Sequence record: PV763039.1
Strand: one strand, 5' to 3'
DNA length: 64,000 nucleotides
From: Escherichia phage WPEC6
Part shown: positions 47,459 through 60,881 of the stretch, piece by piece
How the letters are laid out: each line of letters opens with the position of its first letter
Numbering within the stretch: position 1 is the first letter of the stretch
The notes under the pieces: generated by a model
Told to the model about the DNA's origin: nothing
The model's input: only the letters and a program-made list of their open reading frames with translations
Databases searched by the model: none
Program-made: the position numbers and the translations under genes

Positions 47459-47654
47459 TTCTACCTCCTTCAATGCTTTGTGCCGTACCATCCCAAGCCA
47501 TTAGAATGTTTTCCAATAGTTCACGAGGCTCTTTAAACCAAACTTCCATTTCATCAAGGATCTCGTCCGTGTCGTAAGTATAACCTGGAACACCAAGTTC
47601 ACATTTCTTAAGATAGCTTTCTAACCAGCGGTGATAATTCTTAACCCCATTCAT
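47451..47654 (-). CDS. hypothetical protein
   Basis: ORF track 67 aa. Confidence 0.45.
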   Translation of the reverse strand: MNGVKNYHRWLESYLKKCELGVPGYTYDTDEILDEMEVWFKEPRELLENILMAWDGTAQSIEGGRNE

Positions 47655-47979
47655 ACTGTGCTACCTTTTCTTTTACCCAATCTACACGATCTTTATCATA
47701 ATGTTGAGTGCCAAGGAAAAGACCATTGTGGAAACTTTCCTCACCGAAAGGATAAATTGGATCTAAACCATCTTCTTCAAACAACATTTTTAATCGATTT
47801 GATGTAGATTTCTTAGTTTCTGAGTTGTAGTTTGTGGTTATAAGCCAATCTTCCAAACAACGACACAAACCTTGACGAGAATCCCAAGGAAAAACACAAT
47901 CTCCGACAGGAGCTTGTTCCGCCCATTTCAACCAGCCTTTAAAAAAGTTATACAGTATGTAGTCTTCAGTGTAATACAT
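47641..47979 (-). CDS. paralog family A member
   Basis: GLCRCL, YPFG, RVDWVKEKV motifs; internal ATG 47979 has RBS aggaggag (track ORF to 48027). Confidence 0.6.
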   Translation of the reverse strand: MYYTEDYILYNFFKGWLKWAEQAPVGDCVFPWDSRQGLCRCLEDWLITTNYNSETKKSTSNRLKMLFEEDGLDPIYPFGEESFHNGLFLGTQHYDKDRVDWVKEKVAQYEWG

Positions 47980-48030
47980 TATCTCCTCCTTTACGTATAC
48001 AATAACACCCCGAAGAACGGGGTGCAACTG

Positions 48031-48642
48031 TTATTTAATCTGTTTAAAAATTTCGTTTGGAACGGTACCGTTTAAAATACCTTCTACGATCTCTTGTGCA
48101 GACGTGTAAGAGAGTCCAAAAGAAGCTACGCCTAAAATTGCCTCCTTCAAAGGATCTGGCAGGGGTTCAAAATTACCTGCAACAAAGCCACCTGCACAAG
48201 CAGCGCCTTCATCATCCCAGAAAACAACTGCTACATCGTTACCATGCGAAGTTGTGCGATGTGCAATAACTTCAACTTCGGTGCCTTCTTTAGGAACAGA
48301 ATAAGAACTGTCCCAAGAATATCTTTCCAAATCAGGAACAAAGATAACCTTTTCACCTACTGGCGGCAGTTCACAACGATAATACCAAGAATTTTTTTCG
48401 TTCATTGTTTTATTTTCCTCCACGTCTTCAAAAGTAACGATCCAATCGTAGCCGTAAGAAAACGGATATTTTAGATCTAAAGAATAAGTTTGACCTAGAT
48501 CGTCCTCAACAAGAACCATCCTGTCAAAGTTTGCGATGTTAGGATTATGTTTAATGATAGGGTATGTTTCCCCTACAGTAAATTGTCCCAAATGGTAAAG
48601 TTCATCTCTCCAAGTAATTTGGATATGAGTGCATTGAATCAT
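48031..48642 (-). CDS. hypothetical protein
   Basis: ORF track 203 aa. Confidence 0.55.
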   Translation of the reverse strand: MIQCTHIQITWRDELYHLGQFTVGETYPIIKHNPNIANFDRMVLVEDDLGQTYSLDLKYPFSYGYDWIVTFEDVEENKTMNEKNSWYYRCELPPVGEKVIFVPDLERYSWDSSYSVPKEGTEVEVIAHRTTSHGNDVAVVFWDDEGAACAGGFVAGNFEPLPDPLKEAILGVASFGLSYTSAQEIVEGILNGTVPNEIFKQIK

Positions 48643-48646
48643 AAAA

Positions 48647-48919
48647 TCACCCCCAAGAAATATTTATATATCTTACAATGTTTGCACTGTCTAAAGCCAT
48701 GTTTGCACCACACCCACGCTCGCGCCAGTAACTAACAATACCTTCGCAGATACTTTCTTGTATCTTCTTATCACTTGGCATTTCTAGTATAAGACTTGGG
48801 TTGTGGATGTTTATGTTATAATATCCTTCCTCTGCGGCTTGAGCTACCAATTTACTTACTTTTTCAAAGTACGGGGAATTAGTGGCATCTGCCATTGTTT
48901 TTAAGGTTTGTCTATCCAT
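48647..48919 (-). CDS. hypothetical protein
   Basis: ORF track 90 aa. Confidence 0.5.
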   Translation of the reverse strand: MDRQTLKTMADATNSPYFEKVSKLVAQAAEEGYYNINIHNPSLILEMPSDKKIQESICEGIVSYWRERGCGANMALDSANIVRYINISWG

Positions 48920-49284
48920 TATTCTGCCTCATCATAGAAGAAATCCAACTCTTGTTCCAGTTGTTTAACTCGATCCTTAACCCACTGTACACGTTTTTCA
49001 TTAAACATGCAACGTTTTTCCTTACACTCTTGCTCAAAAGATTTTGCTGTGTTAAATGGGAAAGTTGTATCTAAGCCAGCGTTTTCAAAACTGGCTAATT
49101 GCATACCATAAACAGAATATGCTAGAGAATGCTCTGCCCGAAATTCATCACTTATATACATACGCAGACCTCGGCATAAGCCAACATCAGCGTAACCACT
49201 TTCTCTTGGAAAGAGACGGAGGTGTTCTAACCAATTATTATAGAAATCTAAAAGAATCCTCTTACACTTCAAATCGATTGTCAT
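48919..49284 (-). CDS. paralog family A member
   Basis: GLCRGL, FPFN, RVQWVKDRV motifs; internal ATG 49284 has RBS gaaggagaa (track ORF to 49317). Confidence 0.6.
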   Translation of the reverse strand: MTIDLKCKRILLDFYNNWLEHLRLFPRESGYADVGLCRGLRMYISDEFRAEHSLAYSVYGMQLASFENAGLDTTFPFNTAKSFEQECKEKRCMFNEKRVQWVKDRVKQLEQELDFFYDEAE

Positions 49285-49684
49285 AAAAAGTTTCTCCTTC
49301 ATCAAACAAGTTGGCAAGATTGTTCACGGCAATCTGGGTGGAAAGAAGACAACTGTTTGCAGACACATAAGCACGAGCTATTTTGTAAACATAAACTTTC
49401 GTATTACAATTGTCTAGGATCGGAAGACTTTCGTCGATAGCATCTATAACACTAAACATCACATCTAAAACTTTAATGGTGAGTGTTGTATTTGTATCTT
49501 CGTAACCTTTTTCAATCAGACCTGAATAGAAGGTATAGTCCTCAACAGTTCGTCGTTTAAATTGGCGCATAAAATCGGAACCATCTGTAGCAGAATTGAA
49601 CAAATTTTCAAAAAATACGTCCCATCCGGCAAAAAGGGCTGACAGCATGATTAAGTGATCTACAGATTCATTTTCTTGTTTCAT
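49262..49684 (-). CDS. hypothetical protein
   Basis: ORF track 140 aa. Confidence 0.5.
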   Translation of the reverse strand: MKQENESVDHLIMLSALFAGWDVFFENLFNSATDGSDFMRQFKRRTVEDYTFYSGLIEKGYEDTNTTLTIKVLDVMFSVIDAIDESLPILDNCNTKVYVYKIARAYVSANSCLLSTQIAVNNLANLFDEGETFYDNRFEV

Positions 49685-49692
49685 ATCCTCTC

Positions 49693-59076: not shown

Positions 59077-59081
59077 TGGCT

Positions 59082-59537
59082 TTACTCCTTATCAATAGTG
59101 ATTGTGGCGTTTGCTACTGCAACACGAGCGTAAATCTCAACCGTCTTCGACGGATAATCCTTCTTAGCTTTTGTAGCGACTTCAGAAGCTTTTTCAAAAC
59201 TAGAACAAACATCTACACACTCTGATCCTACGATCACAACATGCCATTGTGGTTCTGCTTTACCCATTGTTTCCTCCTTTACTTCTTCAAAATATTTAAA
59301 TTCTTCGTTATCAATCAAATAAGTATATGAATTAAACCCTGGGGTAACACCTGCTGTATAAAGGGTACCATTAATATAAAACTCAAGAACATGACCATAC
59401 TTATCATCTGTATTCATAACTTTGAAAACTTCGTTTCCAATCGCTTGGCAAACAGCAATATTTGCTTTGTCATGTGTTGCCATATCTCCTTGGTCAGCAA
59501 CGCTTTTGAATTTATAAGTAAACCCTACTTTAAACAT
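59082..59537 (-). CDS. paralog family B member
   Basis: ORF track 151 aa; EPQWHVVIVGSECVDVCSSFEKASEVA domain. Confidence 0.55.
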   Translation of the reverse strand: MFKVGFTYKFKSVADQGDMATHDKANIAVCQAIGNEVFKVMNTDDKYGHVLEFYINGTLYTAGVTPGFNSYTYLIDNEEFKYFEEVKEETMGKAEPQWHVVIVGSECVDVCSSFEKASEVATKAKKDYPSKTVEIYARVAVANATITIDKE

Positions 59538-59559
59538 GATCTTCTCCTCTTATGTTAAA

Positions 59560-60009
59560 TTATTGTTCTACTTCACGCAACCACGCTAAAGCCTCTTCTG
59601 GAGATTTATCGAAGTCGTTGAGCAGTTCCTGCTCCAACTCCTCTTTCATTTCATTCAGCACTTGCAGTTGCCGTGCTTTCTTCCATAACAAAACTTTCCG
59701 TTCAGTGTTGTTTGGTGTTACTTCATTTCCTGCTATCATCACATATCCTGTTGGAGAGCAAGGAAGATAGTCATCAATATCTTCTAAAGCATAACGATAA
59801 TTGGAGTCCAGAAAGTTTACATGTACACGATCACATCCAAACAAGGTAGCACGGAATACTTCGTAACAAGTTTCAGATAGAATATGTTGCACACAGACAA
59901 TACCTACATCATCTTGCACTGCACAGGTTACATCCAACAAACTTGAATGTTCTTTGACATAATCTGCAACACATTGCACATGTGCTTCCAGTATAGATAG
60001 TTGTCTCAT
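59560..60009 (-). CDS. hypothetical protein
   Basis: ORF track 149 aa. Confidence 0.5.
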   Translation of the reverse strand: MRQLSILEAHVQCVADYVKEHSSLLDVTCAVQDDVGIVCVQHILSETCYEVFRATLFGCDRVHVNFLDSNYRYALEDIDDYLPCSPTGYVMIAGNEVTPNNTERKVLLWKKARQLQVLNEMKEELEQELLNDFDKSPEEALAWLREVEQ

Positions 60010-60245
60010 TTTCTACCTCCCCATAATGCTAACATTTTATTAAAAATAGAAATGCGTCGTGCGCGAGATGCTAATGTTATATTATCTTCCTCGGCACGTT
60101 GCAAGTAGCGATCACACTTAATCAAAGCTTGCGTCTTCTCTTTTAGAGTTTGCGTGTTCATCCACTCTGTCTCAGAGTAGTGATTGTAGAAGTATTCTGT
60201 ATCCAGAACATTCATAGCTATCTCATTATCTACTGGAAGGATCAT
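60006..60245 (-). CDS. hypothetical protein
   Basis: ORF track 79 aa. Confidence 0.45.
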   Translation of the reverse strand: MILPVDNEIAMNVLDTEYFYNHYSETEWMNTQTLKEKTQALIKCDRYLQRAEEDNITLASRARRISIFNKMLALWGGRK

Positions 60246-60463
60246 TGTACCTGCTCCGCATCCTTCAAGTTTTTAATGAAGTAACGACCAACCGGATTCC
60301 CTCGGAAGTATTCGTTAATGAAATCGATAACACACGTTTCACTGCCTGTCACAACGGACGGCTTAAAGTTTTGGAATTCTACAGCTACACGGCTGGCTTT
60401 AGCCAGTGCTTGCACACGTGTAGGATCAGTCAAGAACATTGTGACAGTTTTCAAATTCTTCAT
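60242..60463 (-). CDS. hypothetical protein
   Basis: ORF track 73 aa. Confidence 0.45.
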   Translation of the reverse strand: MKNLKTVTMFLTDPTRVQALAKASRVAVEFQNFKPSVVTGSETCVIDFINEYFRGNPVGRYFIKNLKDAEQVQ

Positions 60464-60512
60464 TTCATCTCCTCATTGGCTATCTGTTATGTCATCCATT
60501 ATACAGACATTT

Positions 60513-60881
60513 TTATTCAATGCAAGCATTATTTGCATCTTCAATTCTGTCTTTCACCCATTGAAGACGTAACGTGTTGGTATGACACGCCAAGTTTATA
60601 CACTCTGAAAGGTAATCCATGCAATCTGCATTGAACGGAAGATTGTAGTCCAGCCCTGCACATGTAAATTGTTTCCTCATTTCATATTTCAAACGGTCTA
60701 ACAAACTATCCCGCCATCTTCTATCTTCTTCTCTAGTTGTCTCACCAACAAAATCATCTACATAATCTACCAGACAACCACATAAGCCACTCGTTGTGCG
60801 ATTCATTGCAGGATAGTTGGCAATCCATGCTTTATAGAAGCGAAGCAATGTTGCACTGCTCAACGGAATATTATTTGTCAT
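60513..60881 (-). CDS. paralog family A member
   Basis: closest to 614..982: shared LSS..L..FYKAW, TTSGLC, AGLDYN.PFN, R.QWV.DRI. Confidence 0.65.
   Translation of the reverse strand: MTNNIPLSSATLLRFYKAWIANYPAMNRTTSGLCGCLVDYVDDFVGETTREEDRRWRDSLLDRLKYEMRKQFTCAGLDYNLPFNADCMDYLSECINLACHTNTLRLQWVKDRIEDANNACIE

Follow-up and report, generated by a model that had tools for sequence, protein, structure and literature searches.

The 64,000-nucleotide (nt) stretch of the Escherichia phage WPEC6 genome analyzed here (accession no. PV763039.1; hereafter the window) carries seven small open reading frames (ORFs) that a preliminary description, made from the letters alone, had grouped into a single paralogous family, family A. 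All seven were found at the coordinates given there, and profile, leave-one-out, and pairwise tests identify them as homologous paralogs. A profile built from the seven members and run against the 663 six-frame ORFs of the window retrieved only these seven, with E values of 3e-37 to 4e-47 (next best, 0.14); leave-one-out profiles regained each omitted member at 1e-16 to 4e-34, the best nonmember scoring at least 0.07; and 21 of 21 pairwise BLASTP comparisons were significant, at 23 to 52% identity (weakest E value, 6e-4; most at 1e-7 or lower). Family A is the largest paralog set of the window, and a profile from 95 distant relatives recovers the same seven members and no eighth copy there. 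The members are listed below with the E value against the window profile, that against PHROG 2510 (see below) where given, and the ratio of nonsynonymous to synonymous substitution rates (dN/dS) relative to the orthologs in phage 3A1_SA_NWU; protein lengths are in amino acids (aa), and Mt1B1_P17 is a related RefSeq genome.

614..982, plus strand: member 1, ortholog of Mt1B1_P17 gp154; profile 3e-42; PHROG 2510 at 5e-26; dN/dS 0.19
47641..47979, minus strand: member 2, 112 aa; profile 3e-37; PHROG 2510 at 6e-27; dN/dS 0.08
48919..49284, minus strand: member 3, 121 aa; profile 2e-41; PHROG 2510 at 2e-26; dN/dS 0.06
51901..52227, minus strand: member 4; profile 2e-45; PHROG 2510 at 4e-31; dN/dS 0.24
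52660..52986, minus strand: member 5, 108 aa; profile 4e-47; structure modeled; dN/dS 0.17
55893..56207, minus strand: member 6, 104 aa; profile 5e-41; PHROG 2510 at 9e-29; dN/dS 0.03
60513..60881, minus strand: member 7, ortholog of Mt1B1_P17 gp155; profile 1e-40; dN/dS 0.38
43248..60886, minus strand: small-gene block of about 55 tightly packed genes, nearly all without an assigned function, holding members 2 to 7

All seven genes have an ATG start, six of the seven have a clear Shine-Dalgarno sequence, and RefSeq relatives annotate the same seven genes, all labeled as hypothetical proteins. As listed, the ORF of member 4 opens at a GTG, but the gene annotated in relatives is 321 nt long and begins with the ATG at 52221 (106 aa), which is the likely start and overlaps the stop codon of the upstream gene. 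Member 2 is the most divergent copy (leave-one-out E value, 2e-16) and has the same annotated length in relatives. Fourteen alignment columns are invariant across the seven members. Among the motifs that had been described as shared by all of them, G-L-C-x-x-L and P-F-[NDG] are present in every member, and the others are consensus rather than strict patterns: F-Y-x-x-[WY]-L and C-H-x-N each occur in four of the seven and R-[IV]-x-W-V-[KR]-[DE]-R in three. The motifs nevertheless align significantly, and no profile search placed the family in a housekeeping domain, the two points on which the preliminary description had staked the grouping.

Window rearrangement and canonical gene order

Locally, the window matches Escherichia phages WPEC1, WPEC2, and WPEC4 at 100% identity and, at 96 to 98% identity, many genomes of Phapecoctavirus, the phAPEC8-like group of approximately 150-kb myophages. 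Local blastn comparison with Mt1B1_P17 revealed that it is a mosaic, with segments in a noncanonical order and orientation, as follows.

1-943: reverse complement of Mt1B1_P17 150260-151202
950-2283: Mt1B1_P17 3783-5116
2283-5044: reverse complement of Mt1B1_P17 7340-11035
5036-28210: reverse complement of Mt1B1_P17, about 93.6-116.8 kb
28210-60886: Mt1B1_P17 116.8-150.26 kb
60886-62264: reverse complement of Mt1B1_P17 5412-6794
62264-64000: terminase region of Mt1B1_P17
943..950: rearrangement junction inside member 1; the partner junction, 60886/60887, lies 5 nt upstream of the start codon of member 7

None of 76 related records contains the 943/950 or the 60886/60887 join as contiguous sequence, and the records of WPEC1, WPEC2, and WPEC4 are each arranged differently; the rearrangement may stem from misassembly or from real recombination at short repeats. 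Because position 943 falls within ORF 614-982, the last 13 codons of member 1 are junction derived: the gene is native only at 614-943, and the codons past the 943/950 junction (QVGDSFHSVYLFQ) replace the canonical EKNDK end. By protein comparison with Mt1B1_P17, the canonical product is 114 aa long and ends in DYEGEKNDK. The strand layout that had been reported for the family, one member on the plus strand and six on the minus strand, is accurate for the ORFs as they stand in the window, but the plus strand and the 46- to 60-kb separation of member 1 do not reflect its natural arrangement, since the window is rearranged at both joins.

In canonical genomes, all seven members are codirectional within 14.4 kb, where they make up 7 of 43 genes. 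Directly upstream of the member 7 ortholog, on the same strand and with an 11-nt overlap, is the member 1 gene; this tandem pair corresponds to gp154/gp155 in Mt1B1_P17 and to genes 1 and 2 in 3A1_SA_NWU and is also present in phiWec179. Annotation and mapping in WPEC1 and Mt1B1_P17 show that the canonical small-gene block runs on into member 1 and then into the terminal repeat. Genomes of this phage subfamily have been described as ending in direct terminal repeats (paper on the subfamily), and in the Mt1B1_P17 record, the two ends share an exact direct repeat of 328 bp, matched by window positions 1-328. The tandem pair is the first gene pair inward of this repeat in Mt1B1_P17, with approximately 290 nt of gene-free AT-rich DNA in between (approximately 1.2 kb if the other end is included). 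Window positions 1-1100 hold 10 promoter-like sites versus 4.3 +/- 2.4 in shuffled sequences.

Relationship to N4 gp3 and phyletic distribution

The seven genes are paralogs belonging to the N4 gp3/PHROG 2510 family. All of them match PHROG 2510, a cluster of unknown function, with E values of 2e-25 to 4e-31 over about 105 residues, with weaker matches to three other PHROGs of unknown function. A GenBank note on gene 0008 of Achromobacter phage JWAlpha reads "similar to phAPEC8_0044 and gp3 of N4"; the family hidden Markov model (HMM) matches N4 gp3 (104 aa, positions 1214-1528) with an E value of 4e-21, and reciprocal tblastn searches with N4 gp3 as the query recovered members from phAPEC8, Mt1B1_P17, and WPEC2 at 2e-8 to 6e-7, with member 4 as the best reciprocal match in the latter two. 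The likeness extends to a full-length profile match, the invariant motifs, the size, the predicted five-helix fold in BFVD relatives, and an early-region position. The difference is one of copy number: N4 and most small phages have a single copy, whereas here there are seven diverged copies, including the overlapping tandem pair by the terminal repeat.

In those other phages whose annotation is good enough to show its position, the family is found in the early region; gene 0008 of JWAlpha is one such case. The gp3 gene of N4 sits between gp2 and gp15/16, the genes for its RNA polymerase II (RNAPII). The products gp2 and gp15/16 are early ones, their genes being transcribed by the virion RNA polymerase that the phage injects, and gp1 and gp2 are cofactors of N4 RNAPII (PMC4496689). 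An N4-like metagenomic contig (L011) has the same layout of gp1, gp2, a family member, and the RNA polymerase. In JG068, a T7-like phage, the annotated host promoters and the early terminator flank the member gp5, and in many N4-like and T7-like records, a member is found 1 to 6 kb from the left end. The family is represented by one early-region copy in N4-like and T7-like phages and has expanded to seven to nine copies in phAPEC8-like phages.

The preliminary description could not assign family A to a known domain, and we likewise recovered no Pfam, NCBIfam, PADLOC, or PDB match. When the first three were searched with the seven members, fused relatives, N4 gp3, and the 95 distant relatives, only subthreshold chance matches came up; none of the seven matched a PADLOC defense model at E values of up to 1, and a sequence profile search of the PDB retrieved no match for the family. 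Word-index protein searches found close relatives only. An exhaustive profile search of 1.84 billion representatives, with hits clustered at 50% identity, recovered 1,694 clusters at E values of up to 1e-3, 733 of them at up to 1e-10. Most of these are single domains of 100 to 120 aa; some polypeptides have two or three tandem domains, a few relatives are fused to a DUF551 domain (Pfam), and two (P0041 and P0133), judged by eye, have N-terminal hydrophobic stretches that are likely transmembrane segments.

By tblastn, the family occurs in 245 phage records. Several copies each are present in Phapecoctavirus, Justusliebigvirus, and Vequintavirus-type myophages, and single copies are present in N4-like phages of Achromobacter, Erwinia, Klebsiella, Delftia, and Rhizobium; T7-like phages of Burkholderia, Ralstonia, and Rhizobium; T1-like siphophages; and PAK_P1/KPP10-like Pseudomonas phages. 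Only 1 of 72,556 plasmids had a match. A degenerate DNA pattern for QF..AGL....PFN, which covers about half of the family, gave 21 matches and no true member in 100,044 species genomes (one each), close to the number estimated from its information content. The family is widespread in virulent phages of Proteobacteria and restricted to phages. Oscillospiraceae proteins of about 210 to 240 aa (L013 12-722 and L019 4416-5048) matched the C-terminal half of the profile at E values of 7e-6 and 1e-3; having been picked by the motif scan itself, they are probably chance matches.

Another group of small multicopy phage proteins, DUF8296 (PF26948), has a superficially similar CLGVLC motif. Kinship was rejected on the basis of an hhalign probability of 0.3% and HMM scores of 0 bits or lower against DUF8296 genes. 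DUF8296 paralogs adjoin family members in two unrelated metagenomic phage contigs (L009 4684-5001 and 5817-6266; L010 2477-2923 and 3163-3546).

Predicted fold and sequence conservation

Member 5, the one of the seven that was modeled, yielded a high-confidence AlphaFold2 prediction from a 27-sequence alignment (predicted local distance difference test score [pLDDT], 94.5; predicted template modeling score [pTM], 0.86). The model has five helices (residues 5-19, 34-42, 50-64, 77-85, and 93-107; H1 to H5), around which run long high-confidence loops (residues 20-33 and 65-76). Foldseek searches of the PDB (to April 2026) returned nothing better than an E value of 1.6, and similarity to solved anti-defense and host takeover folds (the Ocr/ArdA mimics, AsiA, Acb2, Tad1/2, and others in the PDB) was looked for and not found. 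The relatives retrieved from BFVD, with template modeling scores of 0.8 to 0.88, are all uncharacterized phage proteins. As modeled, the five-helix domain adopts a fold not represented among solved structures. In a natural two-domain relative, P0035, both domains are predicted to repeat this topology (pLDDT, 91.9; pTM, 0.67).

We measured conservation in 95 relatives averaging 30% identity. Phe10, Gly33, Cys35, Pro72, Phe73, and Arg95 are invariant; Leu7, Tyr11, Leu34, Glu57, Gln61, Phe62, Leu67, Asn92, Trp98, and Val99 are more than 90% conserved (Glu57, Gln61, and Asn92 at 92 to 95%); and Tyr80, Glu83, and His90 are conserved at 87, 79, and 74%, respectively. The motif set F10, G33-L-C35, P72-F73, and R95-x-x-W-V is invariant in the seven window members and 98 to 100% conserved in the 95. 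Some of the conserved polar positions may be structural: Ser4, Asn74, and Asn92 are just ahead of the helix starts at residues 5, 77, and 93 in the model and hence may be N caps. A conserved stripe is present on H1 (P = 0.006) and H4 (P = 0.03), with P values of 0.12 to 0.14 for H2, H3, and H5, and on H1, the conserved face coincides with the hydrophobic face. This pattern fits either a conserved core with variable outer surfaces or a small internal polar site. Isoelectric points (pI) are 4.5 to 5.3 in six of the seven window members, with a family median of 5.2 and values of up to 9.1. Taken together, the seven are ancient paralogs of one single-domain family of approximately 100 to 120 aa, with a compact predicted five-helix fold and usually acidic.

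Selection, copy number, and recombination

The coexistence of seven diverged copies had been attributed to diversifying selection, an explanation that the substitution patterns do not bear out. Comparing the window and 3A1_SA_NWU orthologs by the Nei-Gojobori method, we obtained dN/dS values of 0.03 to 0.38 for the seven members, indistinguishable from those of neighboring genes (approximately 0.05 to 0.44 in most of those with a measurable synonymous rate); the paralogs themselves, at 23 to 52% protein identity, are saturated at synonymous sites. Because of these low ortholog ratios, each copy is seen to be under purifying selection; the divergence between paralogs is old, and each paralog is conserved among phages.

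The family has instead been shaped by gene turnover. Copy number is seven in three genomes and nine in phiWec179, where three members in tandem lead the block. Mt1B1_P17 and 3A1_SA_NWU retain the same seven loci, and some syntenic positions are occupied by members only about 27% identical to those of the window, indicating that divergent members swap. Two database proteins are clean natural chimeras of the tandem pair: P0007 is of the 614 type in its first 11 residues and of the 60513 type in the rest, with a crossover at PLSS, and P0008 switches at the shared AGLDYN motif. Both are evidence of unequal crossing-over between tandem paralogs. Expansion has proceeded by tandem duplication, reshaped by recombination between the copies, and this, rather than diversifying selection, is the source of the diversity.

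Functional interpretation

The preliminary description proposed a host interaction or anti-defense role for the family. This is a plausible hypothesis that rests on context, namely, the early regions in which members are found, the virulent lifestyle of the phages, and the near absence of the family from plasmids and sampled cellular genomes; no known anti-defense protein is similar to it. Our tentatively favored explanation, which we put at slightly short of an even chance, is that family A encodes early effectors that work in the cytoplasm on components of the host or of its defenses, with a conserved scaffold and paralog-specific surfaces. Under this proposal, the proteins would be produced soon after infection begins and would exert their host-directed effect in the cytoplasm of the cell. 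Phe10, Gly33-Leu34-Cys35, Pro72-Phe73, and Arg95-x-x-Trp98-Val99, with Glu57, Gln61, Tyr80, Glu83, and Asn92, would build a rigid scaffold; the paralog-specific helix surfaces would bind differing host or defense proteins, blocking or redirecting them; and several copies would provide several specificities in one phage.

There are functional precedents for such proteins at the level of analogy. The leading-end antirestriction proteins of the T7 gp0.3 (Ocr) type are small, acidic, and helical and are encoded in the first-expressed DNA of T7-like phages. The family member gp5 of JG068 similarly lies in the class I operon, a resemblance in mode of working for which we claim no membership; unlike Ocr, the family has no sequence or fold similarity to solved structures, including the DNA mimics, and its charge is not uniformly extreme (pI of up to 9.1). 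AsiA of T4 is an all-helical early protein of approximately 90 aa that binds sigma-70. It resembles family A in size and all-alpha architecture and would also do so in early expression and a host protein-binding role, both of which are established for AsiA and proposed here. One anti-defense gene is known from the same genus as WPEC6: Atd1, a MazG-like anti-TIR pyrophosphatase, has been reported in Phapecoctavirus (bioRxiv 10.1101/2022.06.09.495361; PMC11724313). Identity with Atd1 was rejected, as Atd1 is of the MazG type and none of the 7 members and 95 relatives scanned matched MazG or any other Pfam model.

Several observations weigh against the effector proposal. One Cys and one Arg are invariant and a Glu, a Gln, an Asn, a His, and a Tyr are nearly so at about 30% identity; such polar invariance exceeds what a pure scaffold usually needs and may point to a ligand, metal, or catalytic site instead. 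On H4 and H5, moreover, the conserved face is polar and 77 to 105 degrees off the hydrophobic face, which hints at a polar functional site. In P0035, the two predicted domains seem to be strung together like beads instead of forming a fixed pseudodimer, and nothing in that model speaks for a defined oligomer. Sigma-70-like promoters and terminators in the small-gene block are not above the shuffled expectation, so early timing in this phage is drawn by analogy only. Finally, the literature on PHROG 2510, the phAPEC8 paralogs, N4 gp3, and Stephanstirmvirinae or N4 early proteins yielded no functional study.

The first of these points leads to the strongest alternative, possible but on balance unlikely, that family A proteins are small-molecule binders or small enzymes in which Cys35, Arg95, Glu57, Gln61, Tyr80, Glu83, His90, and Asn92 line a pocket and the paralogs differ in ligand specificity. 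Such a pocket, with Cys35 in the first turn of H2, would sequester or modify a ligand of the nucleotide type, such as an alarmone or an immune second messenger. The complete conservation of Cys35 and Arg95 and the 92 to 95% conservation of Glu57, Gln61, and Asn92 in relatives of 30% mean identity are what would be expected of it, as are the offset polar face of H4 and H5 and the high-confidence loops around the helices; the expansion into multiple specificities might also resemble what is needed against diverse signaling defenses. However, about 25% of the members have Tyr or another residue at position 90 in place of His; Ser4, Asn74, and Asn92 may have the N-capping role noted above; and a single invariant Cys makes a classical metal site unlikely.

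A bolder form of these ideas, which we regard as doubtful, is that the N4 gp3-like domain is a new counterdefense fold in which the Cys/Arg pocket or the variable surfaces neutralize immunity, each of the seven to nine versions being directed at one defense system. Immune signals would then be sequestered or modified or immune effectors would be inhibited.

A role internal to the phage, with the proteins as nucleic acid-binding or polymerase-associated regulators of early-to-middle expression or of replication, is quite improbable. The placement of the N4 gene directly after those for gp1 and gp2, the RNAPII cofactors, is what recommends it. Most members are acidic, however (pI of 4.5 to 5.3 in six of seven; family median, 5.2), the family spans N4-like, T7-like, T1-like, rV5-like, and PAK_P1-like phages with differing transcription strategies, its occurrence within these groups is patchy and not universal, and seven to nine copies are hard to square with core regulation. 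A last reading takes the copies for spurious ORFs or for redundant or decaying duplicates without individual functions, as their varying number among close relatives, the fusion of tandem copies by recombination, and their uniform annotation as hypothetical proteins might suggest; it is effectively excluded by their being intact in every case, with a clear Shine-Dalgarno sequence in six of seven, ortholog dN/dS values of 0.03 to 0.38, the family's invariant residues kept in all copies despite 23 to 52% identity, and the same seven loci in Mt1B1_P17 and 3A1_SA_NWU.

Other features of the window

The small-gene block contains further repeated genes on the minus strand. Pfam searches on 10 of the neighbors of family A in the block recognized a serine recombinase alone. 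Its gene carries the label "methionine ABC transporter ATP-binding protein" in several relatives, which looks like a propagated misannotation. Two of the genes with the third repeated domain listed below are directly downstream of family A members.

58621-59076 and 59082-59537, minus strand: second tandem paralog set (E value, 1e-15; 26% identity); 58621-59076 has no Pfam match
58171-58608, minus strand: weaker match to the same set (2e-4)
51292-51846 (C-terminal half) and 57844-58143: third repeated domain (2e-11)
48647-48919: possible further copy of the third domain (0.03)
49693-50370, minus strand: serine recombinase (Pfam Resolvase, 5e-18) in the small-gene block; protein 100% conserved relative to 3A1_SA_NWU
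25702-27627, plus strand: 10 tRNA genes (Met, two copies; Arg, Ser, Asn, Thr, Gly, Gln, Pro, and Ile)
983-1051 (minus strand), 2293-2332, 2767-2807, 3218-3284, 4956-4995, 61003-61042, 61728-61768, and 62204-62270: copies of a promoter-hairpin cassette

This cassette consists of a sigma-70-like promoter (TTGACA, a 16- to 17-nt spacer, and TAAGAT or TATAGT) followed by a GC hairpin (GGCGGCAATGGTGCCGCC), an arrangement that recalls the promoter-stem-loop cassettes of T4-type phages. Several of the rearrangement junctions are at or near copies of the cassette. In the matching region of Mt1B1_P17 (1.2-12.5 kb), small genes are separated by spacers of approximately 80 to 90 nt, as if with one cassette each.

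Implications

The finding is a well-supported "known unknown" rather than a new kind of system. Family A belongs to a large family confined to virulent phages (1,694 clusters at 50% identity), for which there is neither a Pfam entry nor a solved structural analog. Among its genes is an early one of the model phage N4, and in N4-like and T7-like phages, the family is found in the DNA expressed first. Through the kinship with N4 gp3, the question of function becomes testable in a tractable system, and the seven-copy array in phAPEC8-like coliphages of the therapeutic type constitutes a natural panel of specificities. If these proteins are host takeover or anti-defense effectors, that repertoire would gain a new fold, and the proteins could help explain how these phages differ in host range.

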